A stretch of DNA of 63,025 bases, the filler included, from Klebsormidium nitens (taxonomy: Eukaryota > Plantae > Klebsormidiophyceae), in NCBI GenBank assembly GCA_000708835.1. It is 7 parts of 7 records of this genome, joined end to end, with 100 filler letters (N's around TTAATTAATTAA, not from the genome) between each part and the next. Parts side by side here need not be neighbours in the genome. Positions count along the whole stretch, not along the records: positions 44,421 to 54,779 come from DF238206.1; positions 54,880 to 61,472 come from DF238349.1; 5 more parts are not named here. The stretch is one strand, 5' to 3'. Below, piece after piece: positions 29,629-61,134 of this stretch (position 1 is the first letter of the stretch; every line of letters starts with the position of its first letter). Position numbers and translations under genes: made by a program. The notes under the pieces were generated by a model. The model did not search any database, was not told where the DNA came from, and worked only from the letters and a program-made list of their open reading frames with translations.

Positions 29629-30103
29629 GTCAACCGTGATGACGTCGGAGTGACGGTGCGGTACGACTCTGACTACTGAAGTAGTGAAAGCTTTGATTGG
29701 CGCAGTCAGCGGTCCTTGCGGTACCGACCAGGTCTCGTACCGCACCGATTGTCAAGCCTGCAGCGCACGTAGTATCTTCAAGCATTCTACCATATCATAT
29801 TATCATGCCCATCGTCTGCTTTTATACTGTCACGTAGTACTGCCATGAATGAACGCGCGTACAGCTGAAACTCTCGACTTGAACGGGAGATACATGATCA
29901 GTGGATGACAATACGTCGAATTTTCTCACATCTTCTGTGCTTCAGCACCTCTGCGCTTGTTCGCTTAGCTACTGTAGCTGCAGCTTGTATTGCTACTCGC
30001 CGAGAGTGCTCTCTTTGATTCAGCTGCAAAGCGCTTCAATAACCCGCAAGGACGTCGGCTATTGTAATCGGCTTAGCAGCGCCTACAGGGCCGCCAGCGC
30101 ATC

Positions 30104-32329: not shown

Positions 32330-32904
32330 CTAGTCTAGCGGGTGCTCGAGACGGAGACGCGCCTCATCAAACATTTGAAGAACTCTTGAGTGATTGCGCT
32401 AGGACTTTGTTGTCTGTACTGGCCACTTCTAATTGTCGAATGGTTGTAGACGGGTTTGCAATCGGCCCAGGGTAAAAGCAAGAGCAGTAAGTGTGTCAAC
32501 CAATAAGTCTTTGCCCTCACATCGTTCATCTGCGCCATCATGCATCATCTTGGACATGACGTAAGCTTCACGTACTGTGTCGTGCGATATGACGTCCTTG
32601 CGAGATGACGTCCTTGACATGCGATCATGGCCAAAATGAAAAAGATATGTACAATCATAGGCACGCATCATCATCTCATGATCCTTCCCCCCATACCGGG
32701 CGGAGTCGTCCCGACGGAGCCTCGACCAAGGAGCTTGACACNNNNNNNNNNNNNNNNNNNNNNNNNNNNNNNNNNNNNNNNNNNNTTAATTAATTAANNN
32801 NNNNNNNNNNNNNNNNNNNNNNNNNNNNNNNNNNNNNNNNNTAGAGTGTAGACCTAAAGATAGGCCGTGACTCGGAACACTCCATATACATTGTGTGAAC
32901 TTGA

Positions 32905-34464: not shown

Positions 34465-35182
34465 AGGCTTAGAGTAAATCGTCTGAGTGGGAGTGTTGGA
34501 AATCGGTGATATAGTCAGCCGAATTGTGTGTTGAGGATCTGCCCGAGGTAGAATTTGGACTAATGAGCGCCGGCGTGCGTGAACGGCGGCTGGACGGTTA
34601 TAACGTTAGCCGATTTGGAGGTTAGGCTGTTGAGAGCGGCCGTCAGTGTAAGCCGTAGATGAGGATATCGAAGGCTAGGATTGAGTGTGACTGTGAGCTA
34701 GGCTAGTGAGCCTAGTAGAGTGTGAGTAAGGCTAGTAAGCCTAGAAGGCTAGTGAGCCTAGTGGAACGGGAGAGACCCGTAAGACTTTATTGGTGAAGGA
34801 AACCACTAATGTGGTACATCATTTTAAGAGAAGATTGTGGAGAGAAGGGAGCCGCTTGTGAGGCGCTTCGTGTCTTCCTTTTAAGATGCATGGCTGTCAT
34901 CAATGAGTAATGAGCGTGGGTGCCGGGCAAAACGATAAGGCCCGATGACGAGTAACTCAACCAAACTACGAGTCCCTACAATGAGTTCAACATCATACAT
35001 CGGTCTACAATACATTTGTGGAGAAAAGGAAGCCGCTTGTGAGGGGCTTCTTGTGATGCTCTTCGGCTGCATGGCTGCCATCAATGGGTGTGCGTTTGAG
35101 TGCCCAACACTATGATAAGACCCAATGACGAGTGAACACAACATAGATCTACACAAGCAACCTATCGTGGGTACCGGGAGTG

Positions 35183-36240
35183 TCGCACGGGACAGCTACG
35201 GTGCAAAATGTGGCCGGGGCAAATTGACCGGAATCGAATTTATCGGCGGCGGAGTACGCCGCACATTGCGACGATACGGTCGAAATTTCACGGGTCAATT
35301 TTGGGTACTTCGTGGGTAGTCGATCGGTCGACCGTACCAATATCCCCCGAGTTTTTGAAGGTCTACTGCAGATTTGCCCCGATTGTCCCATATTTGGCTG
35401 TAAAATTGGGGTGTAAAGCCATGACTCCACAAGGACTTCCAATAGAGATACAGAGATGCAGCTTGTGCAGGGGGTTCAAGCTTGGAGTGTTGAAGAGCCC
35501 GATGTAATTTACTTGGCAAGGAACTTCCATTTCAAAATGGTTCCAGGCTCATAATGAGGCAAGGTAGGCAAGGAAGAGCTTTTCCAAGACCACCACATCT
35601 TGAAGACAAAGGGCGACTCTTCACATCAATCCTTCAAATTGGACCCTCATTCTAACGGCCGTTGAAATGCCGTGAGGGGTACCCAAGTCCGCGGCGTTCC
35701 GGGTGAGCCGGGCAGTATTTCAGTCTTTACGCTATTTGTAAATTAAGCCCAGGGCATACCGGTACCGGTAGGGACAAGAAAATTTTGTACGGTCCGTATC
35801 ACTCTACCGGTAGGTAGAGAGAACCGCAATAGTGTGTCAGAAAGTACGTACCAACATGGTGCCATCCAGCCGCAGAGCTCCTAAAAGTGGATCCGTGTAG
35901 TAGCTAGGGTAGGTGTTGTCTAAATAAGGTAAATACGCATGTACCGGCCGATCTAGGAAGTCCATGTGCTGTATCCTGCCATGCCAATTTCTATTACAGC
36001 GTTACATCCTGCTAAGTCCGGTCAATCGATTTCCGGGCAATTGTAGAACTTGAATGATCCGGGGCCGAACTGCCGCAAATTGACAGCGATTTTCTACCCC
36101 GGTCAATTTCGGCCGCGGCGAGAAGTGCCGGGATTTCGCGCAACTGCAAAATTGAACTCGTACGGAAATCCGGTGAAATATCCCCGCCGGACGGTGCAAT
36201 TCCGGCCCGACCTACTTTGCACCGTAGCTGTCCCGTGCGA
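35183..36240. mobile_element. Putative non-autonomous TIR element bounded by a perfect 25-bp inverted repeat
   Basis: TCGCACGGGACAGCTACGGTGCAAA (35183-35207) is the exact reverse complement of 36216-36240. Further imperfect similarity (AAATTGACCGG motifs) lies inside. Confidence 0.5.
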
Positions 36241-37434
36241 TTCCGTACCATTCCGGTCACAAATTTGTTTCACCGGTGTCGTGGTTCGCGACAAATCTTG
36301 CACGCAGTATTGACGACCGTACTCGACGGAAATTGAGAATGCAGTCAGACTTCATGAGTTTGCGACCACACAAGCAACCTAGGAATTATTTTATGGTCGC
36401 GGTAATTCGTTCTTTATCTGTTTGAGTCGGGCACGGCGGTGAATTTAAATTTACCGCCAACGAGTCGTCCGGCGTTTTAGCTCAAGTGAAACTTTCGGGA
36501 CTTAGCCGTTTTCGGAGGTTGAAATCGCCCGTACTAGGGGCGAAAGTCAAATTGCGGCCAAATATATGGCCATAAGTCGATCCAAAAAAGTACCTTTTAC
36601 CAAACCCTGCGGTCATCTCTGATATAAGCCCTCCCAATGAACTCCAACATTTTACTCGTCGAATTTGACCCACATTGTATACCGACTATGTCAAATATAT
36701 TCGAAATACCTTACAATTACGATTTTGCTAGTAAAAACGCCGTGAGTACGGGCATACGCGGCTCCGCGTGAAATCCCTACATAGGGTTTGAACTAATGAG
36801 CGCCGGCGTGCATGTACGGCGGTTAGGCTGTTAGCCTAACCGCCGTTGATGAGATTATCGAAGGCTACGGTTTCGAGTGTGAATGTGAACAAGGCTGGTG
36901 AATCTAGTAGAGTGTGACTGAGGCTAGTGAGCGTAATAGGCTAATAAGCCTAAAGGAAGGAGAGATCCGTGAGACAGTAGTGAGGAGGAACACTAGCTTC
37001 ACACATCATTCCAAGAGAAGTTTGTGGAGAGGAGGAAGCCGCCGCTTGTGAGGCATTGCTTGTGTTCCTCAAGGATGCATGGCTGCAATCAACGAGTGAC
37101 GAGCATGGGTGCCGGGGACCACAATAAGACCCGATGTCGAGCGACCACAACACACGTCTAGCCCAATCTCAACAGAGGTCCATTGTAACCACTTCAAAAT
37201 AGCAGCAATACCATGGCGACCCGAAGAAAGCTTGGTAACATTTGATGGTGTCGATCAGCCCAATAACTGTAGATTAGGACCGAGCTACAGTTTGAAGGCG
37301 TGCATGCACGGTATTTAGACGGATAACCGTTGTTAGGAGGTTAGGCCGCGTTAACGACAGTCAATGTGAGCCGTAGATGAAGATATCCATGGCTAAGACC
37401 GACGAGGACTTCGACCTAGGCTAGTGAGGCTAGT

Positions 37435-38977
37435 GAATTGAATCGAATTGAATTGATTTGAAGTCCGTCGGGGCCACGACAGGCCTAGTGGATTATTCTA
37501 CGGTTTATTTGCTGAGCTCGCTTTTCTCCTCTCCATACTCAAATGTACGAATGTAGCTACAGCTCTCTGCTCTAGCCCATTGAGAAAGTGCTTCAGATCG
37601 TCTTTTCCACGTAACGCTGGAAAGAGCGCTTGAAACTCTAGGCGTATGTCACTGTAAGCTGTGCAATCGAATAGGAAATGCTCCTCGTTTTCGACCCGAG
37701 CACTTGCACAAAGCGTACACAACCTACTCGCTCGATCCTGCCTTTGCCATCTTCCCGTTTCCACCGCCAAAGTAGGCAATCCGACACGGATTCTGGGTAG
37801 GGAAAACAGCAACTGTGGCGCATGTTGAAGCTGATCGAAACAGCTCTCCATTGCGTACCCCTCTTTCATCCTCTTGAAGTACGTTTCAAACTTCGAACCT
37901 TTTTGTTCTCGAAGGTCCATCATGTATGCTAATTGGGCACGCTCCGTGAGGAGACGAATGGTCGACCTGCTGGCCCTGTGCAAGTCTGATAACTGAACAA
38001 ACTCGAAGCTCCGTTTCACAAATTTCGCATACCATCCTCCTCTGCCGGCTTCCCAAAGTGCGCTCGACTCTTTCCAAGCCAAACCTGCTAGCCGATCCGT
38101 CCCCAACCCTTCGACCCTCGCCCAGAACTCCGACACTCTCCGCTACCGCTGGACTCCCAGGGGAAACCTCCCAAAGTTTCCCAAGACCGCCTTTGAGCAC
38201 GCAAATTTCCGGGCCCTCAACAGGCCCCTCAAGAACGCTCTGTGCACCGATTCCAGGCAGTCCCCATCTCCGTTCCAACCCCACTCAACCCCGACCCCCG
38301 GCTCCCAAACTTCCGCCCCATACTCCAAAATTGGTCGCACGAGCGAATCGAAAAGCGCCACCTTCGTTTTAGGCAACTTGATGCCGACTTCCTTGCATCG
38401 TGCCTCTAAATCGAACACCGCCTTCCGACCCGCATCGCTCAATTCGCAAGCCGCCCGGGAAGTGCTGCCCAAGCAGTCAAACCAGACCCCACAGTACTTA
38501 TAAGCTTTGACCAATTCGACTTGGTCCTGAGCATACCAACTGTTCCCCGACACTGTTGAACTTGGAGCTGGCCTCCAAAAACGACTATTTGAGTTTTTTG
38601 CAAATTCACGGGATGTTGCTTACTCTCACTAAAACGCTCCGAAATGTCCAGCTTTTTTTATAACCCGTTTCTACTGGTGGCTAGCATCACTACGTCGTCA
38701 GCAAAAAAGATCGCAGAAACTTTCACCCGATGTAGCGACGGGCTATCAGTGTCTTGCGAAAACTCCTCATCCGAGCTATCAACATACAAGCCAAAGAGCG
38801 GTGGGCTTGACGGGCACCCTAGCTTTACCCCCTGCCTGCTCTGAAACGACTCCTCCGAAATCGACCCATCCCCACGTAACCAACACCGGACGTCCTTGTA
38901 CAGGCCTTTTAGAGACTCTAGCATTTGACCGCGGACTCCAAGCTTATCCAACTGCCGCCACAATTTGATTTTGACGT
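37435..38977 (-). mobile_element. 5'-truncated, degenerate non-LTR retrotransposon (RTEX/CR1-L2-like LINE) with 8-bp TSD
   Basis: RT motifs GVKLGCPSSPPLFGLY, FADDVV and YKYCG. C-terminal LAVETGRW..RLCTLC..ENEEHFLFDC..Y..IR. In-frame stops and a frameshift are present. The 3' tail is (CAATT)n-like at 37435-37462. TSD AGGCTAGT at 37427-37434 and 38978-38985. Confidence 0.9.
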
Positions 38978-39993
38978 AGGCTAGTATTCATAGCAGGTTA
39001 GTGAGACTAGTGGAATGGGAAGGACTAGTCCGTGAGGTTTATACCGGTGGAATTCGCTATTCTGATACATTACTCTAAAAGAGGCCCTCTGCAAAAAAGC
39101 AAGCCACCTGTGAGGAGCTTCGTCGAATCATGGCTGTCATCAATGAAAGATGAGTCTGGGTGCTGGGCACCACGATAAGATTCCCGAAACGACAACAACT
39201 ACACTACGAGTCCCTATCATGAAGCATTGATGCGCGTCAACGTCAGGAGCAATACGGGTTCGGAAACATAAATCACTGTGCGGTGGTCAAAGCACATCCA
39301 TTAATCCACCACTTTGTGCGGGAAAGGGTAACCAAAAAGGTCGTCGACTTTGCAAACTGTTTGTCGATCGGAAGGTTTTGCAGGCGGATTTCCTAATCAA
39401 AGCGCGGACACCATGATATTCTCGAAGTGCAAGCATAAGATAGGACTTGCTCATGAGACTTATAGCGTAAAAGAGGATTGAGAATTCGCCAGTACCTGGA
39501 GACGACGCCTTAAATTATGAAACATTCGTTGCTGTTCGATCGAGCCTTTGGTAGGCCGATTTTCCATCGTAGGATGGCGGGTTGTTTGGTGAACCGTACA
39601 CGTGAAATCGACCATCCGATTGAGATGCGATCGTGAGTAGTCGAGTGTTTTGGTCGAGCCCCGACCTCAATGCAGAAGTAGCCCCGACCTGGGAGTACGG
39701 TACTATCGACCACCTTGGTATAGAGATAACGACCATAAATCCAAATGGCCGCTGTTCAACTCACTCAGCGAGAAATACCATATTCTAAATTGAACCTGAA
39801 TGGGTACCTAAATCGTGCAGCATGCCTGAAATGTGTTGTATACTGCCCCAAGTGAGTTGTACAGTGACCTGGTCACTTGAATAGAACTTCATATATTTGA
39901 ACCGACCAGTGCTCGGTAGAGGGGGGACTACGGATTTGGATTGCCATGAACATTGTCATGTGATCAATACTCATTCTTAGTAGTCAGTGTAGC

Positions 39994-41277: not shown

Positions 41278-44200
41278 CCTTTTCGGTGGAGCAGCTCGAG
41301 CTCGCAAAAACGTCTTTGAAGGACGGGCTGGGGAATGGCCGAGGTGGTGACGGCATGGCGCACGGCGAGCATTGTGCACCAGACGCCGACGTGGAGGCTT
41401 ACCTCGCGGAGCTTGTCGTCGGCAGTCACGAGAGGGCCGCCTGCGAAGGGCCAAGGTGCTTCTGCAAGCAGCATCCAAGGGTGTTCGGCGGCGCTGATAT
41501 GGACGAGAAGCCCTGCGCAGCGAGGTGCTGCGCGTCTGCTCAAACGAACGGAAAGCGAGTCCGATCGGAGCAAGGAGAAAACTCCAGTGGCGCTGGGAAG
41601 GCGAGTGCGAAATCGGGCAAACGGAGAACCAAATCGTTCTGGGCGGCAAAAGGCATAGAGACGGAGGGTTCGAATGCTGCAACGGGCAGCGCGGGGAAGG
41701 CTGAGTCGGAAACAGCCGACGAGAAGGGGCGGGGAACGGAGAGCGCTCCCCAGGTCGATGATCGGAACGCGCTGTCAATTCCGGTGTGTAACATTTGCGT
41801 GTGCCCCTCGAACGTGTGCACACATGGTGCCTCCCGCGGTGCTGCGACGGTGTTGCCCATGGAAGCTGAGGGCGTGCAGCTGGAAGTGCCCAAGCTCGTT
41901 CGCCCGACGGACTCCTGGCAGGTTCACGACCCCGAGGTGTCGCTGCTGCGAAGGCCCGTTCGAGTGAGCGAGCTCACGGCCCGGGATTTCGAGGAGCTGA
42001 GCGCTGCCGAGAGTCTCTCCGCCCCGTGCCCGCGAGGGCCACCCCCTTGCAAGACCCAATGGTCGGGTTTGTGGCAGAATGCACAAATATACGACTTGTA
42101 TTGGTCGCAAGAGGTAAGTTCACCATCGTGCACGCTTGTAATTGACCCTCTTGCAAAGATTGATTGAATGGCACAACGTCCAACGAACATATGAAAAGAA
42201 TAAAAGAAACATTTTAGTCGAGGGAGATGCTTGACGCAGATTAAATCCGTGTGATGTTGAGTCACTTCTGATCGCGAGTCAGACTAGAGCTCTCAGCCAT
42301 GCTTCTAAGCGAAGCTGTCAATCATCAGACGGCACCTTGGTCTCTGTTTTTGTGCAGGTCAAGCTCCGGATCTACTGCTGCGCATGCCCCAAGAAGCATA
42401 CCGTTCATTTCAATGGGGAGGCCCTCGGCTTGTACGCTTGGACGCGCGGGATGGTCATCACGCAAAAAGCCTGTCAGATACTGCTACGAGACGTTCAGAA
42501 TACGGGTGCTGCTTTCAGCTCGCTCGTTGCAGCTGCAAGCACTGTGCGGCGTCAATTCAACCCCGATGCAACCATCTTGTCAGAGGAGTGTTGGCGTAAG
42601 GCAACCCTTGGCTTCTTCAAGCTGTGTGGGCGGCAGATCATGGAGTGTTGTAGTCTCTGCGGACCACATCCAGAGGTGAGTTTTGCATCACTCATCACTG
42701 GAGTTCTTGGGCACCTTTAAGCATTGCTGACGTCATCACATGCGGACCCATCTCGGCATGTCCGATTGTCCAAAGTCTGGCACCCACGTTTTGCAATCAC
42801 TCGTTGCTAACGTCATCACAACCCCAAGGCAGTCTTGCCGCCGTGTCCAAGTGTCCAAGCTCTGGCACCAACTTTTTGCGGTCGCTTATTGCTGACGTCA
42901 TCAGAGCATGGGCACCTAAGTTATATGAAGTTCACCCTTTCAAGAGCACTGGATCATCTTTTTTGTGAAGGTGCTTCTATGCGACGGCATCGCGGGGCTT
43001 GCTTGCGCTGACGGCACGCGTCAGAAGGGTGGGCTTGCTGGAACGGATGCCGCCTTGCTTCGGCCATTCACGGCGCCTAGTCGGAGCTCTAATGGAGTCA
43101 ACGTGCGGAAAGTCATGGAGGCCGGAAGCAACTACCTGGCGGCGTCTCTTGCGGGAGGAGGCCTGAAAAAGCGTCTCCTGCATCAACCCGAGCTTCGGAC
43201 GCTTCTAGCGCGGTTCAGCGGACACCATGCTGCTGACCCGGAGCTGGGGAAGACGCTGAGTACACGAGAATACGAGGAGCTCCTGGTACGTTTTGACTCC
43301 AGCCCGTTCTCTGCTTGCGGTAGGCCGGATGTTTGAGAGAGGCCGGGTCACTGCCAGTCAAAAGGCGCCCCTCATTTTATAGAGAGAAGGAGGGCCGTTC
43401 TGACTGCCGTGGCCGAGTGTTTGCCAAGAGGCATTACTTCTACCTAAGGATTTGCCGGAAGGGCTACATGCCAGCGCTCTGCTATGGATTTGATCGAGAT
43501 GCAAGCATGGTTTTTTCCTCCCGCAACCTTGTCGGATTGTCAACGCGTTGCAACACATCCCTCTGGTAAACGGGTTCAGTCAAAAGTCGCCCATCATATT
43601 CTAGAGGAATGGATGCGACATTTGACTGTAGTATTTCAGTTCGTTAGATCCAAAAGAAGAACTACAGTGCTCATGCACGCTCGCTTCGAGCAGCTAACCT
43701 GAACTGGCGTCTTTGTGCAGGTCGCGCTTGCCAGGGACGATGTGCAAGTCGTCACGGACTTTGTGCAGGATCCAGATGATGCCGATGCAGACCCGGTGCT
43801 CTTGCACTGGCGCCGACAGATTCCAGCCCATCAGGTCGGCCAGGTTCGGTCGAAGAACAAAGCGGTGCTCGAGCTGCTCGACGGCAACGAAAGAGAAGTG
43901 ATGCAAGACGAGCCTCAATGGCCTCCCCGCTGCCCCCACAGATGGGCGGAATTACTCTACACTCTAGGCGCACCGTTCTCGGTCTCGGACGACTCCAATC
44001 TCATCCAGCATGGAAAGGCCCTGGGGGTGGTCCGCAAGCTTCTGCTAGGGGGAGCCGCAAACGACGACGACAGAGTCGTGCTCGCCGAGCATTCACCAAT
44101 CCTGCGCCGGCTGCTAGACCACTACGGCGACCGCTTTCCCCGGTACTTCCATCCCGCGCTACACCATCTCTACCGTTTGACGCTGTTTGCGCGGGGGGCG

Positions 44201-44320
44201 ATGGGGCTTGGGGTGGGGCGAGCGGGGTGGGCGTTGTCGGCCATCGAAGGCCTCGATGTCTGCGTGTGGCTGGAGCGGGAGCCGAAACCCCTGAGCCTCG
44301 AGCAGCAGCAAGCCTTCGAC
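41278..44320 (+). mobile_element. KDZ (Kyakuja-Dileera-Zisupton)-type transposase gene, copy 1, partial (both ends in gaps). Exons 41278-42113, 42358-42675, 42971-43285, 43721-44320.
   Basis: Spliced in frame. It has CxC-type Cys clusters (CFCKQHP, YCCACPKKH, CSLCGPHP) and the first catalytic Asp context VLLCDG. It is collinear with copy 2, which carries the KDZ core. Confidence 0.8.
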
Positions 44321-44421
44321 NNNNNNNNNNNNNNNNNNNNNNNNNNNNNNNNNNNNNNNNNNNNTTAATTAATTAANNNNNNNNNNNNNNNNNNNNNNNN
44401 NNNNNNNNNNNNNNNNNNNNC

Positions 44422-46515
44422 ACACGAAACGCAAAGGACCATGAGGGTCGGATTGCGGATGCGATGATGAAATTACTTAAAAATAGTGGCTTGGACGGAA
44501 ACGTTCGTTTCAGTGGAAAAGTTTCGCATCGTGGCCCAATGGGTTCATTGTATTCCTTTGTCTGTAACGGCCCACGAAGGTGCATCAATGGACATTGCCA
44601 CAATGGTTCAAACAATTTCACGTTGATAAAACGAGGTTGGGTTGTGCTTTATCGATGCTTTGGATCCGAATGTTCAGAGAAGCCGCTTGTAGAAGTTGGA
44701 AGTCTCAGCCTGACGGACTCACTGCTAGATGCAAATCCTATAAAGTTGCATCCAACATTCGACCATTCGGTTTTTCCTGATAATCGAAGATCTTTATCCG
44801 AGGTTGAACACCAATTGTATGTGGATATCGTCAAACGCAACATTATGCAACGCTATCGAGGGATGGCTGCTATTTTTAGTGCAATCTACGCCGTTGATGG
44901 ACGAATTCTTGCCGAAGGAAAGAATTTCAGATACTGGAACGGACGACGCTGGATTCTGGATGGATCCTTTCATGTACAGTCGGTCTTTTCAAGCCACATC
45001 GCGCGAATCTTGAAATGGTATGCGAATCTACGACTTGCGGCATTCAAGCATGAGATTTGGAAGCTGGCGAAGGAATCGACGGAATGGGAATGTGTATCAG
45101 AAGCTTCGGAATACACTCTTCCAGATTGGGCAACCAAACCGCGGAGCGAAGAAGAAAAGCGCACATGCCGCCGAGCGTGGGAGCTAGTCTCGGCCAACTT
45201 ACCATTTCCTTCAAAAGGTGACTCTGCATGTCAGCTTATAGACCTAACGCGGGGCTCTGAAGTGCGCGTCTGTCTTGAACACGTTCTCAATTCGCTGCAG
45301 ATTCAGGAGGATCTAGATGCTTTGATGGACCTCGCCAATCCAAATCTGTTTGCATGTGCCAATGGAGTGTTGGACACAACAACTGGACTTCTGCTTATGC
45401 CCCATCCTGCACACTTGTGCTCGCGAGCTTCGAAGGTAGCTTTTCGCGGAATGCCTAACTCCGAGTCCCGATTTGCTTCATTCTTGCTAGCGTGCTTCAA
45501 TAATGACAAAGAAGTGCTTGATTGGTACCAACTGTATCTCGGTTACTGCATGACAGCTGATACAAGCGAACAGATATTTCTCGTCAAGCAAGGAGAGGGG
45601 AGTAATGGTAAAACTCTCACGAAAATAGCTTCTTTCGAGATCTTTGGATCGTATGCAGTCGTCATGGACAAGGATCTCATCATTGAAGCGGGGGGCAAGC
45701 GGTCTCCTGGTTCAGCTTCATCACATCTGATAGCATTGAAGGGAGCGAGGTTAGCAGAATCCGATGAGTCAAGCAAAAAGTCTGTCCTTAACGAAGCAAC
45801 AATCAAGGAGTTGTCTGGAGGCGGCTCCATCACGGCAAGAGAGCTTCAAGGCAAGCAAGAGACCTTTATGGTGTCCCATAAGGCCATTCTGAACACCAAT
45901 TACAAGCCCATTATGGAAAATACATCGTTTAGTCTCATCCGCCGTATGGCCCTCCTTCCAATGACAGTGATTTTCAAGTCGGCCGACGATGTTGATCCGC
46001 GGAAAACCAGAGAAAAGCCAAAAGATCCTACCTTGGAAGCTTACTTGAAGTCCGACGAAGGTCGAGAGGATGGACTTTCATGGATTGCAGCCGGGGCAAA
46101 GCGCTACTTTGAGTTGAAACGAGCGAATCCGAGCGCTCTTGTCCTAGAGAAACGACCAAAGGCTATGAAAGACGCCTTGAAGGCGTATGTCAACGACAAC
46201 GATGTTGGCAAACGTTTCATTGAGGAGTGTTGCGAGTTTGAAGAGATGCAAGAGGGTGTACGTGCGAAGTGGCACCTAGCTCTAGGAAAAAGGCTTGGTG
46301 ATGCTTTTCGAGCTTGGATGAAGGAGGAGGAGATCTCTAGTTCTCTGACCGCTCAAGCCCTGAAAAAACGCATTCTCCTCTATGCCGACGGAGCCAACTA
46401 TCGACTCGAAGACGGTCGTTTTACGGATAGATCTGTACAAGATAGAGGGCAATTCAAGGGTCTTAGTGGAGTGCGGTTGAAACCTGATTTTATGCATGAA
46501 ACGGCAGATGGATGA
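44422..46515 (+). CDS. Virus/plasmid-like primase-helicase: PrimPol/UL52-type Zn finger + D5_N + SF3 helicase (P4/D5 family). The reading frame is open back to the gap, so the N-terminus (possible AEP primase domain) is missing.
   Basis: Intronless, at least 683 aa. Zn finger C-INGHC-H-NGSNN..YRC-FGSE-C, D5_N FACANGVLDTTTG, Walker A GEGSNGKT, Walker B LAESDE, motif C ILNTN, Arg finger IRRM. Confidence 0.88.
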   Translation, partial: TRNAKDHEGRIADAMMKLLKNSGLDGNVRFSGKVSHRGPMGSLYSFVCNGPRRCINGHCHNGSNNFTLIKRGWVVLYRCFGSECSEKPLVEVGSLSLTDSLLDANPIKLHPTFDHSVFPDNRRSLSEVEHQLYVDIVKRNIMQRYRGMAAIFSAIYAVDGRILAEGKNFRYWNGRRWILDGSFHVQSVFSSHIARILKWYANLRLAAFKHEIWKLAKESTEWECVSEASEYTLPDWATKPRSEEEKRTCRRAWELVSANLPFPSKGDSACQLIDLTRGSEVRVCLEHVLNSLQIQEDLDALMDLANPNLFACANGVLDTTTGLLLMPHPAHLCSRASKVAFRGMPNSESRFASFLLACFNNDKEVLDWYQLYLGYCMTADTSEQIFLVKQGEGSNGKTLTKIASFEIFGSYAVVMDKDLIIEAGGKRSPGSASSHLIALKGARLAESDESSKKSVLNEATIKELSGGGSITARELQGKQETFMVSHKAILNTNYKPIMENTSFSLIRRMALLPMTVIFKSADDVDPRKTREKPKDPTLEAYLKSDEGREDGLSWIAAGAKRYFELKRANPSALVLEKRPKAMKDALKAYVNDNDVGKRFIEECCEFEEMQEGVRAKWHLALGKRLGDAFRAWMKEEEISSSLTAQALKKRILLYADGANYRLEDGRFTDRSVQDRGQFKGLSGVRLKPDFMHETADG

Positions 46516-46599
46516 TTGGGCAACGACGATACTTTTTGTGCACATTACATGGCTCTCGTGTTGCTTCATTTGGATTGGTTCAATGACAACCATATGGAT

Positions 46600-46981
46600 G
46601 CAGACTAAAAGACCAGAAGACCAGAATTCTAGATCTTTTTCTTTTCATTTTCAAAGAATAACTCACTGATGTAAGGCCTCTCTGTGAAATAAAAAAGATT
46701 GAGAATTTCGGGCTTCTGGTCTTTTGGTTTGAAATCCTATTCTGCCTCAACGACATAGTTCAGTGACAGCCATTTGATCGCAGACTAGAAGACTAGAATA
46801 CGAGGTTTCGAAGACTAGAATTCTAGATCAGTGATAAATATATGATTGCAGACCAAAAGACCAGAAGACCAGAATTCTAGATCTTTTTCATTTCATTTTT
46901 CAATGAATAACCCAATGATATAGTGCCTCTCTGTAGAATAAAAAAGGTTGAGAATCTCGGGCTTCTGGTCTTTTGGTCTGC
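46600..46981. repeat. Two complete (46600-46732, 46848-46981) and one partial (46780-46829) ~134-bp fold-back units with GAC(C/T)AGAA iterons and an AT-rich centre
   Basis: Unit 2 has a perfect 20-bp terminal inverted repeat, GCAGACCAAAAGACCAGAAG / CTTCTGGTCTTTTGGTCTGC. Unit 1 is a near-identical direct copy. Confidence 0.9.
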
Positions 46982-49205
46982 CGCTCTCCTGCGCCAACAT
47001 GTTGATCATCAAATATGTGTGATACGATGAGAGAGTTTGCAACGTCTCATACAAGCATGAGCTACTACCACATGCTAATGTATGGGATCATAAAAAATGA
47101 TTCAATCTCAGTGGCACTGTTTTAGTGTAATAGGCAATATCGAACAAAAGGTGTCCACCAGCGTACGTTACCCGCTACTCTCATCTTAGCGTCATCTACC
47201 CGCACGAGTTCTGAATTTCGGCCACTCACCAAACTGGCTAGAATAATCATGAAAGCTTCGAGCCCAGAGTACCAGCCTAGCGTCTTAAACCTGACGAGGA
47301 AAGAATTGCAACTCTCGACAGCCGAAGTGTTGACCCAACGCACTACGTCATAGTAATCCGGGTTGAATGTTGGTCCGCACTTGTGTCCCTCCGCTCCAGT
47401 TCGCTGAAAGTGGAACCTGTACGCAACATTGCGCAATTATTTGATTGGTTCAAGAAAAAACGCGTTGATCGAGTTGATCATACGGTCAACATCTTCACGA
47501 TGTCAAGCAATCCGACGTGCACGACCAGTCCGGGTGCCGGACGGCAACCACACATGGCTCGTCTAGCTTTCTGCAGATTGAACGGAAAATACAAAACGAG
47601 CAGAACCTAGACACCTTCAGCAGAGATACTAGACGACGGTCAAACGATACTACGCAACTTGCCACTTTCTGCACGGTACTTGCCAGACCTGCCATGCCCC
47701 AACAAATGTTGCAGAATGTGAATTCGTGACGTTTAAAGAGATATAGAGACAATTGCTGGCAACACGGAAGAAGTGAAGAAGAGCTTGTCTCCACCTCACC
47801 TGTCTACCAGGAATCGGACGTCCGCAAAAAATGCCGGCTCGCGTCGCATGCAGTAGGCTCGCAGCTTGCAAGCATTGTCGTAGAAGACAAAGCGAGGCAG
47901 ATTGTGTCGATGTAGTCGTGTGTACAGCACGGCGAATGGATCGCGCGGCGACTCTCCTCGAAGCATGGCATGGAAACCATAAATTACTCGGTGAGGACAG
48001 CAGAACACGAAGCCCCCTTTGGTATGTCTCTGGAGACGCTGCGCGGACTTCGACTTGCTGAGAGTCGCGACCTCAGCGTCAAACTCCCCCACTGTGAGCC
48101 CCCCTCTACATCGATGCTCTTCAGCCCGTTCGATGGATCTGCCTAGCTCGTCTTCAAAAGGTCTGTACTGCGGCAGAGGGCGCTTCTGTTCCCAGCCAAG
48201 CAGAGGATAGCAGCCAAGCAGGCGCTGTTCTTTGCAGAAGGGATGATCGAGAGGTAGATTGGGAGGGATGCTTCCACCTGCTTCTAGGCCTAGCCGCCCG
48301 TTCCAAAGCGCTGTCTCTGGTACTGAGAGCGGGTAGACCCCAGCTTCTGGTTGTGAGAGCTGCTCAACCGCTGGTAGCAAAGCATTTGCCCGCGCCTCCC
48401 AAAATGCAAAAGCTTGCTGGCGGTCCGCGGACCATGCGTGCGGCCGCTCTACTCTGTCTCGCGTTGACCAAACGCAGATGTCTAGCCCCTCGATGGCAGA
48501 GAGCGCGATCCCAGCGCGTCCCACCCCTAGGCCGACCGTTCCGCGGCCAAATAGAGTGAGCCGATATAGATGGTGGAGGGTTGGGAGGAAGAAGGTGGGG
48601 AAGGTGGACCCGTAGTGATCTAACAATCGGCGCAAGATGGGAGAATGCTCAGCCAGAACGGCACGGTCGTCTAGGTTCGCCACACCTCCCAAGAGAAGCT
48701 TTCTGACCACCGCTAGAGCACTGCCATGCTGGATGACATTGCTATCATCTGAGACGGACTTCGGCGTGCCGAGGCTGTAAAGAAGCTCCGACCATCTTCC
48801 AGGGCAACGGGGGGGGCTCTGTCCGGGAATGCTCAGCAGAGACTCTGCCTTGATCCCTTCCATGAGAACCAGCAACGCCCGGTTTTTGGTCCGAATCAAG
48901 CCGGTCTGCTCGAGTAGAAGACGTCGCCGCCAATGAAGGAGAACAGGGTCCGCATCCGGGTCGTTGGGATCTGAAATGAACTCGGTGACGACTTGTACGT
49001 CCGCTCGATCAAGCGCAATCTGCGGTGAAAGCAGCAAAGTACTCAGAGCAGTGCAAACCTCCTCCGGAGCTGTCTAGGTTATGCTTTGATTCAAGTTCTG
49101 CAAAAGCTGGACAAGTCGGTATGCGCTCAATCCTACCGCCGGGGAAGACACGAGACGAGCAAAAGCTAGAGACTTTCAGCGCGGGCGCCACTCCCACACA
49201 GCTTG

Positions 49206-50085
49206 GTTAGATTCGGGTTTGGCAGATTGAAGACATATACAAATCGTGCAGAACCTGGACGCCTCTGGTGCCGGATGCCAACCTCGNNNNNNNNNNNNNN
49301 NNNNNNNNNNNNNNNNNNNNNNNNNNNNNNNNNNNNNNNNNNNNNNNNNNNNNNNNNNNNNNNNNNNNNNNNNNNNNNNNNNNNNNNNNNNNNNNNNNNN
49401 NNNNNNNNNNNNNNNNNNNNNNNNNNNNNNNNNNNNNNNNNNNNNNNNNNNNNNNNNNNNNNNNNNNNNNNNNNNNNNNNNNNNNNNNNNNNNNNNNNNN
49501 NNNNNNNNNNNNNNNNNNNNNNNNNNNNNNNNNNNNNNNNNNNNNNNNNNNNNNNNNNNNNNNNNNNNNNNNNNNNNNNNNNNNNNNNNNNNNNNNNNNN
49601 NNNNNNNNNNNNNNNNNNNNNNNNNNNNNNNNNNNNNNNNNNNNNNNNNNNNNNNNNNNNNNNNNNNNNNNNNNNNNNNNNNNNNNNNNNNNNNNNNNNN
49701 NNNNNNNNNNNNNNNNNNNNNNNNNNNNNNNNNNNNNNNNNNNNNNNNNNNNNNNNNNNNNNNNNNNNNNNNNNNNNNNNNNNNNNNNNNNNNNNNNNNN
49801 NNNNNNNNNNNNNNNNNNNNNNNNNNNNNNNNNNNNNNNNNNNNNNNNNNNNNNNNNNNNNNNNNNNNNNNNNNNNNNNNNNNNNNNNNNNNNNNNNNNN
49901 NNNNNNNNNNNNNNNNNNNNNNNNNNNNNNNNNGATTGAAAGCATATACAAATCGTGCAGAACCTGGACGCCTCTGGTGCCGGATGCCAACCTCGTCCAG
50001 GTTTTGCAGATTGAAAGCATATACAAATCGTGCAGAACCTGGACGCCTCTGGTGCCGGATGCCAACCTCGTCCAGGTTTTGCAAA
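49206..50085. repeat. 75-bp minisatellite (50-bp palindromic core + 25-bp linker) inside a transposase intron, mostly collapsed into a gap
   Basis: GATTGAAAGCATATAC recurs at 49934 and 50009 (period 75), and the same unit lies left of the gap (49225-49286). The core ends are inverted: GTCCAGGTTTTGCA / TGCAGAACCTGGAC. Confidence 0.9.
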
Positions 50086-51599
50086 ACCTAGACAACTCTC
50101 GTGTCGGATGCCATCTTCAAAGGGCTTGTCTAGAATCAGCAGATTCAACCATGTGAGAACTCACCATCAGCTCGTCGAACTCATTGCTGCTCAGGGGTGC
50201 CCCAAGATCAGGGTCTTTTGGATGATGCCGACTGAACCGAGCCAGCAACGTGCGCAACTCCGGTTGGTGCAGAAGACGCCGTTTTGGGCCGCAACCGTCC
50301 AGCCCAGCTGCGCAAAAATTCACGCCCGGCTGCATCACCTTCTCGACGTTCACTCCCGCAGCATCTTGAGTCGGAGCCGTAAACGGCCGCAGATGCGCCG
50401 CGCTCGTGCCAGACAATCCCCCTTTTTGGCGCCCACCGTCCGCGCATGCGAGGCCCGCAATCCCGTCGCAGAGCAGAACCGCGGGGTGAGGCCCGCAGAT
50501 GCTGCAGNNNNNNNNNNNNNNNNNNNNNNNNNNNNNNNNNNNNNNNNNNNNNNNNNNNNNNNNNNNNNNNNNNNNNNNNNNNNNNNNNNNNNNNNNNNNN
50601 NNNNNNNNNNNNNNNNNNNNNNNNNNNNNNNNNNNNNNNNNNNNNNNNNNNNNNNNNNNNNNNNNNNNNNNNNNNNNNNNNNNNNNNNNNNNNNNNNNNN
50701 NNNNNNNNNNNNNNNNNNNNNNNNNNNNNNNNNNNNNNNNNNNNNNNNNNNNNNNNNNNNNNNNNNNNNNNNNNNNNNNNNNNNNNNNNNNNNNNNNNNN
50801 NNNNNNNNNNNNNNNNNNNNNNNNNNNNNNNNNNNNNNNNNNNNNNNNNNNNNNNNNNNNNNNNNNNNNNNNNNNNNNNNNNNNNNNNNNNNNNNNNNNN
50901 NNNNNNNNNNNNNNNNNNNNNNNNNNNNNNNNNNNNNNNNNNNNNNNNNNNNNNNNNNNNNNNNNNNNNNNNNNNNNNNNNNNNNNNACTCGCCTTCCGC
51001 CAGGTCTCGCTGGACAGGGGTTTGGCACCCGGCGAGTACAATCGGCGGACGGCGTTTTTGGCCTCTATAAGAGCGCCGTAGGCGGAGCCAGAGCCTTGCA
51101 CGCATCGGAGCAGCAGCTGGCACGATGCTTGTGTGACGATGACGCTCCTCGTCCACACGTACAAGCCCAGAGTTTCTCCATTGAAGTGGACCGTGTGCTT
51201 CTCCGGACAATTGCAGCAATATATGCGGATCTGCACCTGCACACAGGAAAAATGGACTCGAAATGGTCTCATGCCGTCAAGAAAGGTGAGAAGAGTTGCG
51301 TGATAGGGAGGAGTTTGCCTTTGAGTTTTGTTTAGACCGTTCTCGTATTTGCAAACAGTTCGAATCCTGTCCAGCATTTGCAGTCTAGATTTACGCATAA
51401 AATCTGCAAAACCTGGACAGCCCCACCAACGTGTTTGACAAGAAGAGATTGCCAACAAAAGCTTGGGATAACTTGCGCATGCTCATGCTCTACATAGATT
51501 TATCTAGTTGTCCAACTTCTATGGTCTGCAAAAATTGAGCACAACCCAGTCAATCCTGACGCCACTGAGAGATGGATGCCCACCAAAAAGAGCTTGCTG

Positions 51600-52034
51600 A
51601 AGGAGCAAAATCTAGAGAGCTCCAGCGCGGATGTCGATCGCACACCGACTCGTCTAGCTTTTGCAGAATCGAAGCTATAGAAAGGGTGTGGAATCTAGAC
51701 AGCTGTGGTGCCCGGATGCAAACCACACAGACCATGTCCAGATTTTGCAGATTGAGAGCATATACAAAACGTGCAGAACCTGGACAGCTCCTGCGCGGAG
51801 GAAAATTGGACATTCATTTGTCTAGCTTTTGCAGAATCAAGACATATACAAAGTGTGCAGAATCTAGACAGTACCTGAAAACGACAGCGGCAACCCGGTG
51901 ATGTTATGCATAAAATCTATCGCGCTCAATGAATGTAGAATCTGAAGAGTCTCGATACTGTGCTTGAGAAGCACCGTCTAGCTGTCTAGCTTCTGCGTCC
52001 CTTTGATTACGCCTGATATTTGCAGAACCTAGAC
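51600..52034. repeat. Array of ~50-bp palindromic repeats separated by 34-35-nt diverged spacers (51652-51700, 51736-51785, 51820-51869, 51984-52034)
   Basis: Consensus GTC(T/C)AG.TTTTGCAGA..CATATACAAA..GTGCAGAA(T/C)CT(A/G)GAC. Spacers are 51701-51735 (35 nt) and 51786-51819 (34 nt). Confidence 0.85.
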
Positions 52035-55000
52035 GAATGCAACGTGGCAACAATCCCAGCATGCACTCACCTCCTGAGACCAGTCCAATGAGTAGATGTG
52101 CGACGCCTGCACCAAGCTCGACCAGCCCGTCCCGCAAGGTGGCGGCTCCTTCGGGCAAGGTGCGCACAAGCACTCCATCCTGCTCAGCTCATCAAAATCG
52201 CGCGCCGTCAGCTGGCTAACTCTCACCGGCTGCTTCAGCAGGGTGACGGGAGGGTCGTGAACGGCCTCGGGAGCCGTCTGTTGGGCGCACTAACTTTGGA
52301 GTTTCCACCTGAACGCCCTCTGCACTCATGGGCATGACGACGGCAATACGTGCTGGCTCTGCGTGGAGGCACGCCAACGAAGGGCAGGAGCAACTCTCAC
52401 AGACGCGGACGCAACCCCTCCCATGCCCCCCACCAATGCACCCAGCCCCCTCATTGTTGGCCACATCTCCACGCTCACCACCCCCCATTTGAGCGGCCCA
52501 AAAGGCTTTAGACCTCCGTTTCACCCCTCGCTGTGCGGACGCCCCATCCTCTACCGTCTCCTCTCGCGGACGCTTCCCCGGTGCGCTACTGTTTGCGGAA
52601 GTACAGCACTGACCTTCGCAGGGCTGCTTGTCAAGGCTCACCCCCCCCAAACAGCGATGGATGCTGTTGGCAAAAGCAAGTGCACACCGCGTCATGCCGC
52701 TCTCCGGCGACAAGACCGAGGAGATAACGCTCCTCATCTGAGAGGGCCTCTAGATCCTCTCCGCACGCCTTGCTTGCTTGACATCCCTCACCGGCTTGCG
52801 TTTGCGTGCAAGCTGCCTCCTCCTTGCCAGCCGCCACCTCTCTCTTCTTTCGCTGCAGCCACACTCTAGCCCGTTCCAGCTGCGTTTCTGTGAAGAGGCA
52901 CCCCTCCAATTTGCTTACCCCCTCTCTTCTCTCGAGCACTCTTTTCACCTCCAAAAGATGTCTGCAGTCCGCAGTTTTGCTGCAGCCTCCGCGTCTTCCC
53001 TCGCAGTACCATTGGAAGTCAGCCTCCGCGTCGAAGTGCACCATCGTTCTTTCGGGGGAAGGCGAACTCGTGTTCCAAAAAACCCCAAACACTCTCTGGC
53101 CCAGGGTGCTGCACGGCGCCTCCACCACCCGCGGCCCCTTTCGGAATGATAAGTGGCTTGATTGCTAACGCTCCTGGAGGGCTTGCAATGCCAGCTTGTG
53201 GACGCAAGCTGCGCCAAAGCTCAAACAGCTGCGATCGCACGTGCAACTCGGGTTCCCCATCGTGTCCCAGTTCACCGTCTCGAGCAACGCCGTGCTTTTG
53301 CTGGGCCGTCCCAGCGGCTTTGGCCTGGCAGCATTGTGGTTCCACGTGGTCATCAAAAAGACGGGGCTGCAGCCCTCCGTCTCTCCAGTGCTATAGATGG
53401 AGCAGTAGCCGGTCTTGATGTTGGCCAGGAACCGTGCAGCTTGAGCAACGAGTGTGAGCTGCCCGTTTGCATCCCGGCCTTCTTCTTCTCGTCCGCAATC
53501 CTACAAAAAAGGTTTGAATACCATTGGTTAGCCAACTGCCTCAAATATCCAAGATTCAAGTGTGCCCGACGATACTAGGCTGTTTAGATTCAGAACTTGG
53601 GGGAAAGCTTTGAAATTCTCGGAACCGTAATCGAAGCTGCAAAGGCTCTTTCTGTCCACCTTCTGCAAGTCGCAAACACATGATCGCCGCCTTTGTCTAG
53701 ATTCTGCATATTTCTTAAATGTGTTGACGTCTGCAAAACCTAGACACATACGCCAGCTAGTTCATTGGGTCGGCCCGAGGGGCCTAAGGTCGGGGAACAG
53801 CTCAAGCAGTTGAATCCGTGGGGTGGGCCTGGGCAAGGGCATGAGCGAGACCCCACCTAGAGTGAGCATCCTCAATGTTATCCGCACAGTGTTGAAGTCA
53901 CTGACCCACATCAAACCTTGGAGAACATCAAATCATAAGATCCAGAGGTTGTATATTTATGTACAACCTCCATTTGAGGGAGGGGTGGCCAGAATCAACT
54001 GCCAGTTATGATTCAACGACTTCTTAAGTAGCGAGAACAACTCACTGAAAAATCAACTCACTTTTTGTTGGACCGTCCGCGGGATCTCTCCCGCTTGGCG
54101 GCCTCTATTCAGAGCACTTTCGGCTGCAGATTTGCTGCGCTTCCCGCCAGCTGCCTCCCTGCTCTTGGCATCTAATGTCTGCAGCCGAATGACCTCGTCT
54201 CCGGCCAAAATCTTCTGCTGGCGCCATGAGCCGGTGGGCTCTGCAGTGCGGTCGAACCAGACCTCCGGTGGACCCACCCATCCACTGCGGGTGATACGCC
54301 AACACTCGTTTTTGTGATTGAGACTTTTCCAGTCCAACGCTCCACGCAAGCGAGACACAGAGGTTGGTTCTTGCCACTGCCTTTTGCCTTGTTAGAGATA
54401 GCAAAGCCGCTGAGATTCTTCTGCTGCGATTTTCTGAAGGAGATTCGGCAGACTCCGTTTTTCGAGCTCAAGAGGGACTGCTTGCATATTGCACACTTGA
54501 AAGCGGTGGAGTTGACTACCAGGAGCCTTGGGTCTATGATGAATCTCCCCGAGGAGACCTGAGTCCACGAAGTCGGGCAGAACCCGTCACCCGGCGACCT
54601 AACCCCTGTCTGAGTCATGGCCGAGCACCTTAGGCTACTGTACGGGTTTCGCCGGTCGGACTTCCTTTGACTGACTTCTAGCTTATGATCGAGTCGAGAT
54701 GAGGAGTTTTGATGGTCGCATTCGCCTTATATACCGTCGGAATATCCCAGGGAAATGACCTCTTACAGGCAATATTTTTNNNNNNNNNNNNNNNNNNNNN
54801 NNNNNNNNNNNNNNNNNNNNNNNTTAATTAATTAANNNNNNNNNNNNNNNNNNNNNNNNNNNNNNNNNNNNNNNNNNNNAGGCCCCATGATGCGCTATAA
54901 TACATTGTCCGGCTGAGCAAGTTGCGTAATCGCATGTGACGTTCATAATGGACGGCCTACTTTTCAATTTTGTGACGCTTTGTCAGAGACCTCGACTCAA

Positions 55001-58623: not shown

Positions 58624-59795
58624 CTGCAGTGGAGTTCCGGCCCCCTGGGTGAGAGCGCTCTTCTTCCCCGGCACGCTGTTCTTGTTCAGCATGATGGACA
58701 ACCGCTCCAGTACCTTCTTCATGTCCGCGCCGTCAGTGCCCTGCATACGTAGCAGACATCAGATTCCACGTAACCCCGGGCGATAAAGCCGCGGAGACTA
58801 TTCCGTCTGGTCGCAAGAAAGTGGGTGCACGAGAGTACGTAATGACCCAAAACTCCTCGCTGATCGGACAAAGTCACGAAATTCAAGGGGGGAAAACTAG
58901 GCTAAAGCTCTGAAAAAGAAAGACGTGTGCTCGAAGACACAGGCTCGCGCAATCTTGACGGGTACACGGCGCAGATGGAAGCTCTAGTTCGTGACTCACA
59001 TTTGGTCGCAGGCCGACGAGCGCGAGGTGGTTGACGCCCCCCCCCCCAACACCAGGGTGGATCCCAACTCCGGCAACCGCCCTGCCAGACCCCGGCTGGC
59101 GGCCACCACCTGCCGCTACTCCTTGAAAGCAGGGCAGGCTGCCTGCTTCAGCGCCACAGCAAGGCTGCCCATCGTGTGGTTGTGGAACCGCCCTGCAGGG
59201 AAGCAGGGCACCGACGGTCTGCAAGCATTGATGGAGGCTGGGCCCACTGACGAGCCGTCCTTGGCGACTGCTTCAACAAGAGGCAACAGGAGAAGGATCC
59301 ATGGAGTCTGTCCAGAGTAGCAGACCCCGCGTCTCCACTTGCTACAACTTTCAGACCTTGATGGCTGAAAGCGACAACATAAAGCACTTGCAGGCATAGC
59401 CCGGGGGATCCCTGCGCTACAAGTTATACGTTTCCAGGGCAACAGATCTGGCCCACGGTCTCATCTGTAGCTCCGCCACAACAAGTGTATGAAACAAGAA
59501 GAGACGATTGGACAGTAAGCACTTCTTCGGCGAATTCTGTGTCTGACACAATGCAGCACCTCGAATGAATTCCCACCTGCAGGCCCGGGAAGACGGCATG
59601 GCTGATGGCCGGCTTGTGTTGACACCGTTGTGCTCGGCCCTGCGGAAACAGATGACGCCGCCGAAGGGCCCTCGCAGCAATTTGTGCGTGGTGGTGGTTA
59701 CAATGTGGCAGTGCGGGGGAAGGGGGCTGCACTACGCCCGCCGCCACCAGGCGGCTGATGTGCGCCATGTCCGCTGTCAGGAATGCAGCAATGCT
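58624..59795 (-). pseudogene. SHMT: Degenerate, intron-retaining fragment of serine hydroxymethyltransferase (plastid SHM3-like). Exons ~59795-59577, 59192-59000, 58740-~58624.
   Basis: AFLTADMAHISRLVAA, HIVTTTTHKLLRGPFGGVICFR (PLP lysine motif), AVFPGLQ|GG.HNHT..LAVALKQA, NHLALVGLRPN|GTDGA..KVLE..IMLNKNSVPG.KSAL. Frameshifts and a TAG at the conserved Tyr are present. Confidence 0.88.
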
Positions 59796-60914
59796 GTACG
59801 CAAACTGCGCACCAGACCAAGGCATCTTAAGAATCAAAGGAGAACCACCGTATTTTCCTCTTCTCTCCATCTCATACTGAACTACATGAACCAAACAATT
59901 CCAGTTGACCAAGATTGGTTGGAGCCTATACCTAAAACTGCATGCAGGTCCACAGTCCATGCGGCACTTGTATCTGATGCTTACGACAGCTTATGCTACT
60001 AAACAAGAACTAGACAGATTTGGATGCTTTCACTCAAACGCTTGCAGGCACTGTGATGCCCTCGCGCATGATGCACAAACCTTTGAGCAACTCCTTCATT
60101 GCAGCATACCATTCCAAGCACTCGTGCAGGCAGCCGCCTCACTTGGGTTAGCAACTGATTCAAAAATGCGGTGCTGCAAGAGCTCAGACGGTGTTGCGCA
60201 AGTACCTAGGCTGTCAATAAGGCGAAGAAAAGGTGCGCCTGACAGCAAGGAAGGTGCAAGTCTTGCAGGGAAGACGGGTGCAACAGAAACTAGGTTTTCT
60301 CAACTGCGTTACAGCTCGCCATGGAGGTATTTCTTGAGATGAGCGTTGCTCATGAGCGTATGAGCGTAAAGGACCAGAATATGAGCGTTACCGGCTCAAA
60401 AATGACGTCCCAACGCTCAAATCCGACGTCACCCGTCCTCGTCCTTGCAATCGCCTTGTTCCCTTGATGACGTCAGCAACTCGGCCGGTACCAGTAAAGG
60501 CCCATATAGGGGGCATATAGGTAGGTATACGACCATACCGTCAAAATCCATAGTATTTCACCATGCGATCTGCCCTCATATAATCGCCGCTACGCGTCGG
60601 AATATACATACCTATATATTGAGCTCAGTTTCCGATTGACCGCAGGGGTGTGCGGTAATTTTTTGTCGTTATGGTATGAAAATACAGCATTTTCGGAGCA
60701 AGCTGCCCGGTTGCGATCGATAGATAGGGTCTATTTAGATACTAGATTTTGGTTGAATTTTAGCTAAAGCTTTGACGTCATCGAACATCTTTCCGCCGTA
60801 GCTAGTAGCCGCCCAGGTATAGAAGAAGAGTGATCATCGAGCCGTAAAGCCTCTGAGCAGGATCTATCGAACGCTGCAAAATTTGCCACGTGCCAAAGTT
60901 GTTCCCCACAATGA

Positions 60915-61134
60915 GTTTAAACGATACTGGTAACTCCGGGGTGACTTAACGGGTGAGTGACTTAAGATTCACGAGTCCCGACCAAATAAACTAAAAAACC
61001 TAACCTAAATAATCACCCGCTCCGCACCCGAACCCATCCTAACCACCATGCTAACCCCAACCGTCCCCCGGGTGCCTATCTCAAGTCACCCCGCTGTTAA
61101 GTCACTCTTTAGTTACCGGCCAGACTGTTTAAAC
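60915..61134. mobile_element. Second fold-back/MITE-like mini element with a telomere-like core (inverted relative to 29446-29628) and different arms
   Basis: Arms GTTTAAAC..GGTAACT..GTGACTTAAC..GTGACTTAAGAT (60915-60968) and an imperfect reverse complement (61078-61134). The core CACCCGCTCCGCACCCGAACCCATCCTAACCACCATGCTAACC matches the 29.5-kb core. Confidence 0.65.

Follow-up and report, generated by a model that had tools for sequence, protein, structure and literature searches.

A KDZ-like transposase gene paired with a P4/D5-type primase-helicase gene in Klebsormidium nitens: a candidate self-replicating transposon family

Introduction

Can a transposon of the KDZ kind carry the means of its own DNA replication? 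The question is raised by a 63,025-base stretch of the genome of Klebsormidium nitens (the window), in which a primase-helicase gene of the P4/D5 type and a spliced gene for a KDZ-like DDE transposase lie tail to tail, separated by a spacer of fold-back repeats. Eukaryotic DNA transposons with a replication enzyme of their own include the Polintons, which encode a protein-primed polymerase, and the Helitrons, which encode a rolling-circle nuclease-helicase. If the reading proposed here is true, the stable union of a KDZ transposase with a primase-helicase and a repeat array would show one more way, independent of these, in which a cut-and-paste element can become a replicon, and would offer a minimal model, with two genes, of module exchange among viruses, plasmids and transposons. 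Even on a weaker reading, the locus holds an undescribed KDZ cargo in a lineage without any KDZ paper that we could find.

The pairing is real and recurrent, and we did not find this gene combination described. The best explanation overall, held with about even confidence, is a family of KDZ-kind transposons equipped with a P4/D5-type replication module, with which the element likely copies itself from the hairpin array.

Layout of the locus

The six 100-base joins of the window each consist of 44 N, TTAATTAATTAA and 44 N. The record of KFL_012570010, the transposase's own gene model, has 10,359 bases and corresponds exactly to positions 44421-54779; since its size equals the distance from join to join, the window is a string of separate records, and therefore features on opposite sides of a linker were not counted as linked. 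The large transposase exon (47796-49022 in this comparison) is 100% identical to that of this model. Positions 44421-49286 contain no N, so the helicase gene and the 3' part of the transposase gene are on ungapped sequence, as had been claimed in the original prediction, which was made from the sequence alone. The same prediction had the helicase converging on the transposase 3' end with the two stops about 600 bp apart, and the distance measured was 606 bases (Table 1).

A second KDZ gene (41278-44320), predicted to lie just upstream, belongs to another record beyond an artificial linker; its linkage is not shown, and it was rejected as a part of the element. This sequence is a 3,043-base internal fragment of another KDZ-like copy, with a protein 67-69% identical to the first copy and most of the DNA differences from it (115 of 208) at third codon positions. 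Compared with KFL_000040010, its aligned pieces are 82-92% identical and its intron positions match.

Recurrence of the gene pair

Recurrence of the D5/KDZ pair was a test set beforehand. Contigs of four sequencing runs were placed on 44421-49286 at 80% likeness, and the results given here draw on part of the joints (15 of 23), loose ends (24 of 270), pieces (32 of 3,342) and differences (40 of 1,104). Run X1 may be the window's own sample, and its depth serves as a rough guide only. One X1 contig (8,252 bases, depth 13.6) was collinear on the helicase, with joints of equal depth (45459>46003, 46130>47798 and 47829>48130) leading into the transposase. Another (1,793 bases, depth 19.7), 85% alike with 64 other letters in 416, extended from 48210 to the helicase 3' end through the joints 47422>47794, 46895>47136 and 46487>46849. 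Both bridging contigs are about 80-85% identical to the copy in the window, and a third X1 contig (depth 28.1) connected hairpin and transposase stop, the repeat units in it differing in number.

The summed X1 depth reached 135 in the helicase, 126 in the spacer, 131 in the last exon, 118 in the core and 43 in the variable insert; in the last intron it was 24, and the own-copy contig there has a depth of 24.3. Depth is thus flat from helicase through spacer to last exon, so roughly five or more copies share all three parts and no element boundary is apparent between the two genes, in line with the prediction. As the spacer reached 126 and the intron only 24, the non-coding spacer is conserved where the intron is not. 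In addition, a 105,864-base record bears the helicase model KFL_003120140 (78% to P0001) and the KDZ model KFL_003120160 (69%), two gene numbers apart. The two bridging contigs, the flat depth and the named pair thus favour a co-inherited unit, and it is likely that helicase, spacer and transposase form one mobile unit.

A different history would be that two repeats of separate origin came to lie side by side on a single occasion and were then multiplied by segmental duplication, or that they are nested by chance in repeat-rich regions. Both genes do occur in many copies, the short scaffolds are rich in repeats, and termini were not seen, but order and orientation are unchanged in copies 15-20% diverged, the spacer is better kept than the intron with flat depth over the junction, and selection acts on both proteins, so we give this history little credit.

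Several points nevertheless weigh against a co-inherited element. One bridging joint, that of the 8,252-base contig, rests on 32 letters, and joints were assigned to contigs by equal depth; the named pair, whose orientation was not seen, may be identical with one of the bridging contigs; and X1 depth falls over the variable insert of the transposase. Apart from the window's own, a named helicase neighbour is present for one of the 27 named KDZ-like models of K. nitens, and one of three named helicase models shares a record with a listed KDZ model, the other two being on records of 13.7 and 3.1 kb. None of four JGI KDZ fragments was on a contig equal in length to a helicase-bearing one, a weak test on a distant subfamily. 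Finally, one scaffold end cuts the helicase gene and the other comes about 160 bases beyond the transposase start, with neither termini nor a target-site duplication in sight. Annotation under-counts such pairs, because the KDZ list takes in only models longer than 714 aa and the window's own helicase has no gene model. A fair reading is a helicase-bearing KDZ subfamily, perhaps among KDZ copies without helicase.

Of 30 bins, 28 were covered in runs X6 and X7. In X6, the joint 46085>47794 appeared at depth 4, together with the hairpin-to-stop joint; at 80% likeness in large mixed runs, this signal is only a hint. Run X5 was rejected as an independent strain, since C>T and G>A made up 236 of its 337 changed places, a pattern typical of converted libraries. 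On 44421-49286 this run shows a bisulfite-type pattern in which a third of the unconverted words remain, which would fit heavy methylation of the element.

The primase-helicase gene

The prediction had described this gene as a viral-type primase-helicase with PrimPol, Zn-finger and D5-SF3 parts. The Zn-finger and SF3 motifs of Table 1, a Zn-finger-like element, Walker A and B, motif C and Arg finger, are found together with a D5_N domain (E 2e-9) in one intronless open reading frame (ORF), which passes the cut-off of TIGR01613, the P4-family primase model (133 vs. 108.7 bits). The ORF aligns without gaps, at 85% identity, with residues 253-939 of a 953-aa relative. As it begins at residue 253, the Prim-Pol domain was removed by the scaffold end, and this part of the predicted architecture is found outside the window, in full-length relatives, where PF09250 matched with E 3e-17 and 1e-15. 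The G+C content at third codon positions is 0.47 in the helicase, 0.60 in the transposase exon and 0.71 in an unrelated gene of the window, and the low helicase value fits a captured gene. The AlphaFold model of the helicase has low confidence (pLDDT 39.9).

A protein search returned 24 helicase matches, 13 of them at 39-83% identity (two being K. nitens models) and the remainder at no more than 33%. In the helicase clusters, intact copies and fragments alike are numerous, on contigs that range from about 1.5 to 91 kb; this is the pattern of a dispersed repeat, and intact copies of about 950 aa exist. Such copies, in a cultured alga with a public genome, make the element directly testable.

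When six full-length helicases were compared, identity was 0.68 in Prim-Pol, 0.77 in the Zn region, 0.67 in D5_N, 0.73 in SF3 and 0.72 in the C-terminus, whereas the linker reached only 0.38 and a middle stretch 0.54. Catalytic domains are thus more alike than the linker, so the helicase was under selection while spreading, and Walker A was kept in all 16 proteins checked. Among the 40 listed differences between contigs and window, 33 were in the large transposase exon, 4 in the helicase and 3 elsewhere (the last not counted); 23 of the 33 (p 2e-5) and 3 of the 4 fell at third codon positions. These patterns indicate purifying selection on both proteins.

A quick tree of 73 of 91 sequences (18 left out for not covering the region), built without named viral references, placed the helicase family in a clade of its own on a long stem, with support 100 and with sister groups sharing its architecture. 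These groups, P0014/P0053 and P0129/P0132/P0142/P0148, have the same architecture at 30-40% identity. The P0014 cluster is itself multi-copy with fragments, and therefore related repeats may exist in other hosts. In a fungal (Coemansia) model, P0159, fragments of RNA polymerase are fused with a Prim-Pol/D5 helicase from the wider family; this is probably a viral insert with a merged gene model.

Regarding the origin of the helicase, the best viral-contig matches had 24-31% identity, phage-sized and giant-virus-like contigs alike, the latter being among the top four; phage and plasmid proteins had 20-31% identity and less than 80% cover among the matches listed. PHROG primase families matched with a best E of 1e-58, and the best solved-structure match was the giant-virus-type C962R primase (E 5e-23). 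Related-locus scans of viral contigs, metagenome contigs and prokaryote genomes found no relative of the helicase. By identity, the helicase is equally distant from phage or plasmid proteins and from giant-virus proteins (24-31%); either could be its source, and 'viral' was rejected as a settled label.

These matches bear on the possibility that the pair is the end of a larger virus- or plasmid-like element, whose further genes would lie left of the helicase and whose integrase would be KDZ, like piggyBac in Teratorn. The left flank of the helicase is absent from the scaffold, the C962R primase and the giant-virus-like contigs among the top matches point in that direction, and K. nitens holds giant-virus inserts, as stated in the accessible text of PMC5294986. 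On the other hand, no close helicase relative was present in viral contigs, and a KDZ-like gene accompanied none of the 80 viral loci with distant helicases; the genes listed for the K. nitens inserts in section 3.3 of that source are polymerase, ATPase, capsid and VLTF3, with no D5 among them, and the transposase carries spliceosomal introns. A larger element is therefore an unlikely reading.

The transposase gene

The transposase gene runs on the minus strand from 54618 to 47122, and its exons have GT-AG borders (Table 1), the DRFH motif spanning the last intron. The set of D, D, H and E residues, which we take to be catalytic, is conserved in an alignment of 13 transposase models. The KDZ domain PF18758 scored 25.8 bits (E 1e-5) in the gene's own model, just under the cut-off of 26.6, and was matched in 14 of 25 relatives at E<=0.05, above the cut-off in none. 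CxC4 was matched in 17 of the 25, the best at 26.3 bits vs. a cut-off of 26.9, and Pfam SWIM in one, below its cut-off, although several carry 'SWIM-type' in their source names. All 25 matches are K. nitens models on different records, 38-100% identical, as in a dispersed multi-copy family; the related-locus scans found no relative of the transposase.

These sequence features suggest a KDZ-like transposase, probably from a divergent algal branch, and membership of the element in the KDZ transposons is likely. The copy in the window is dead, with an in-frame TAG (53167-53165) and frame changes near 54287, 52650 and 52277. The predicted spliced KDZ DDE transposase was borne out as a spliced, transposase-like gene, with two corrections, a KDZ score under the Pfam cut-off and a broken copy.

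The spacer

Two 134-base fold-back units in the spacer fold better than all 200 shuffles (0/200 as good). The octamer is present 12 times in the 606-base spacer vs. 3 times in the other 62 kb, a circular count in that the pattern was taken from the spacer. An Rfam scan of the 10,359-base scaffold gave 0 matches. The prediction had named these units 'iterons'; repeats and fold-backs are there, and the name is an interpretation. They were rejected as plain insertions of miniature inverted-repeat transposable elements, as no flanking duplication is evident and they occupy the same place in other copies.

Fold-backs about 75 bases long are found in all four transposase introns; their arm, which is GCAGAA.CT(A/G)GAC-like, resembles the end of the spacer's arm. 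This arm motif, a pattern drawn from the scaffold, occurs 21 times there, once in the rest of the window and not at all in the other KDZ copy. The intron fold-backs may represent a copy-specific repeat invasion or a shared binding site.

Proposed mechanism

With the layout, the recurrence and the selection on both proteins in hand, the following model may be proposed. Excision and insertion of the element would be the work of the DDE transposase. The Prim-Pol/Zn/D5/SF3 protein would bind the spacer's fold-back array with its octamers, and would unwind and prime there, with extension by the element's own Prim-Pol or by a host polymerase; and the excised copy could so be amplified ahead of re-insertion. 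Replication of the element by its own helicase is inferred from what these enzyme families do, and we hold it at about even odds. We more tentatively suggest a new class, a capsid-less, self-replicating eukaryotic transposon of about 11-13 kb, made up of a KDZ transposase, a Prim-Pol/D5/SF3 protein from a phage-, plasmid- or virus-like source and a hairpin-iteron origin, and amplified before re-insertion; the odds are somewhat against it.

The model also has to face the view that the hairpins could equally be 3'-end signals of two convergent genes. On one rival reading, the helicase would be a KDZ cargo that serves some other purpose, such as repairing gaps where the element is excised or inserted; movement would be cut-and-paste, and the hairpins would act as bidirectional signals. 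Such a cargo has precedent, as the accessible text of PMC12730594 documents KDZ elements as carriers of TET/JBP genes; most named KDZ models lack a named helicase neighbour, and the hairpins sit exactly between the two stop codons. However, all primase and helicase motifs are retained across copies 57-85% identical, and octamer arrays in two orientations would seem more like protein-binding sites than 3'-end signals. We therefore regard a cargo with another job as improbable, and compare below the self-replicating element with known systems.

Comparison with known systems

A SWIM-like motif, weak CxC4 and KDZ matches, the D..D..H..E set and many dispersed copies are shared with KDZ transposons, and a second gene that travels with the transposase is shared with the KDZ cargo elements. 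Unlike the known cargo elements, the cargo here is a primase-helicase, the host is a streptophyte alga and the Pfam scores are just below cut-offs. According to the accessible text of PMC12730594, KDZ elements with TET/JBP cargo make 7-8 base target duplications; 'primase' occurs 0 times in its main text.

As in Polintons, Polinton-like viruses and virophages, an integrating enzyme lies beside a DNA replication enzyme. Unlike in these systems, the part of integrase is played by a spliced transposase of the KDZ-like kind rather than by a retroviral-type or tyrosine enzyme, and the primase is Prim-Pol, not TVpol. Virophages have primase-SF3 helicase fusions along with capsids, as given in the accessible part of PMC3671162. 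Capsid, packaging ATPase, protease and protein-primed polymerase genes were not seen on the 10.4-kb scaffold, which is filled by the two genes, has no left flank and was not the object of a dedicated search. The element may work like a self-synthesizing transposon, and we do not file it as a Polinton or a Polinton-like virus; a Polinton analogue or a virus-transposon fusion can be envisaged.

The P4 alpha protein acts on iterons and on crr, which adjoins its gene; our literature search found no paper on P4 crr. The P4-type replicons are resembled in the TIGR01613 score above cut-off, in the PHROG primase families (up to E 1e-58) and, in a way reminiscent of crr, in an AT-rich direct-repeat pair with octamers just past the helicase stop. 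The differences are that the element is eukaryotic and nuclear, that a DDE transposase replaces the tyrosine integrase and that identity is 20-31%, with less than 80% cover, among the matches listed.

In casposons, pipolins, Helitrons and Academ, the element's own replication or helicase enzyme is PolB, an HUH endonuclease with an SF1 helicase, or a RecQ-like helicase. To our knowledge, none of them pairs Prim-Pol/D5/SF3 with a KDZ transposase. Teratorn, about 180 kb in size, in which piggyBac is joined to a whole herpesvirus genome (accessible part of PMC10175614), is similar in combining a DDE transposase with viral replication genes, and differs in that a single replication gene is seen here.

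The prediction had known of no described KDZ+D5 pairing. Our literature search, outside which lay subscription papers, Repbase and supplements, likewise found no paper on KDZ or Zisupton with a primase, none joining Klebsormidium and KDZ, and none on a D5-like primase-helicase with a eukaryotic DNA transposon transposase. In the accessible part of PMC11244446, primase is mentioned once (giant-virus inserts) and KDZ never.

Table 1. Features of the candidate element, in window positions.
Feature	Position	Strand	Remarks
Intronless primase-helicase ORF, 5' part lost at scaffold end	44422..46515	+	single open frame, 697 aa
Helicase Zn-finger	44581-44673	+	motif
SF3 helicase motifs	Walker A 45592, Walker B 45754, motif C 45889, Arg finger 45940	+	
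AT-rich spacer between the two stop codons	46516..47121	none	606 bases, GC 0.39
Fold-back unit 1	46600..46733	none	8-base AGAC(C/T)A(G/A)A repeats, direct and inverted; z -4.85
Partial unit, three octamers, weak hairpin	46781..46830	none	5/200 shuffles fold as well
Fold-back unit 2	46848..46981	none	87% alike to unit 1; z -8.56
Transposase last exon	47122..47416	-	H of DRFH and putative catalytic E (SAVESCN at 47325); stop 47124-47122
Transposase exon with insert region	47799..49019	-	second putative catalytic D (YDNAC at 47882)
Transposase exon part	50165..50507	-	first putative catalytic D (LLCDG at 50476); in exon 51236-50165, which contains an N gap
Transposase exon part	50988..51236	-	CxC4-like cysteine cluster; runs into the N gap
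Transposase exon	52071..53500	-	SWIM-like CxC..CxH (53245-53192); stop and frame changes inside
Transposase first coding part	54062..54618	-	frame change or short intron near 54287
Fold-back repeats of about 75 bases in transposase introns	47533-47616, 49216-49286, 49934-50083, 51376-51418, 51605-51877, 53694-53749		
Artificial linker between records	44321..44420; same at 54780-54879	none	bounds statements on flanks

Other features of the window

Ordinary spliced host genes are found at 1-21227 and 59424-59990, among them an FtsH-like AAA protease (AAA lid match), a serine hydroxymethyltransferase fragment and, by eye, a WD-repeat-like gene and a helicase-like gene. A tandem pair of intronless genes (26552-28982 and 30098-32565), 78% identical in DNA and encoding about 750 aa, has an F-box-like start (by eye) and a hydrophobic C-terminus without a Pfam match; in the first copy the coding sequence is split over several frames.

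Three dispersed blocks of about 250-300 bases (34554-39222), about 2.1 kb apart and 69-77% alike, sit on an 8.3-kb record without a recognised gene and are possibly long-terminal-repeat-like or part of a long tandem unit. An 89-base repeat, 83% alike, is present on two separate records (29497-29585 and 60979-61066); it holds telomere-like TTAGGG words and is probably the end of a small dispersed element.

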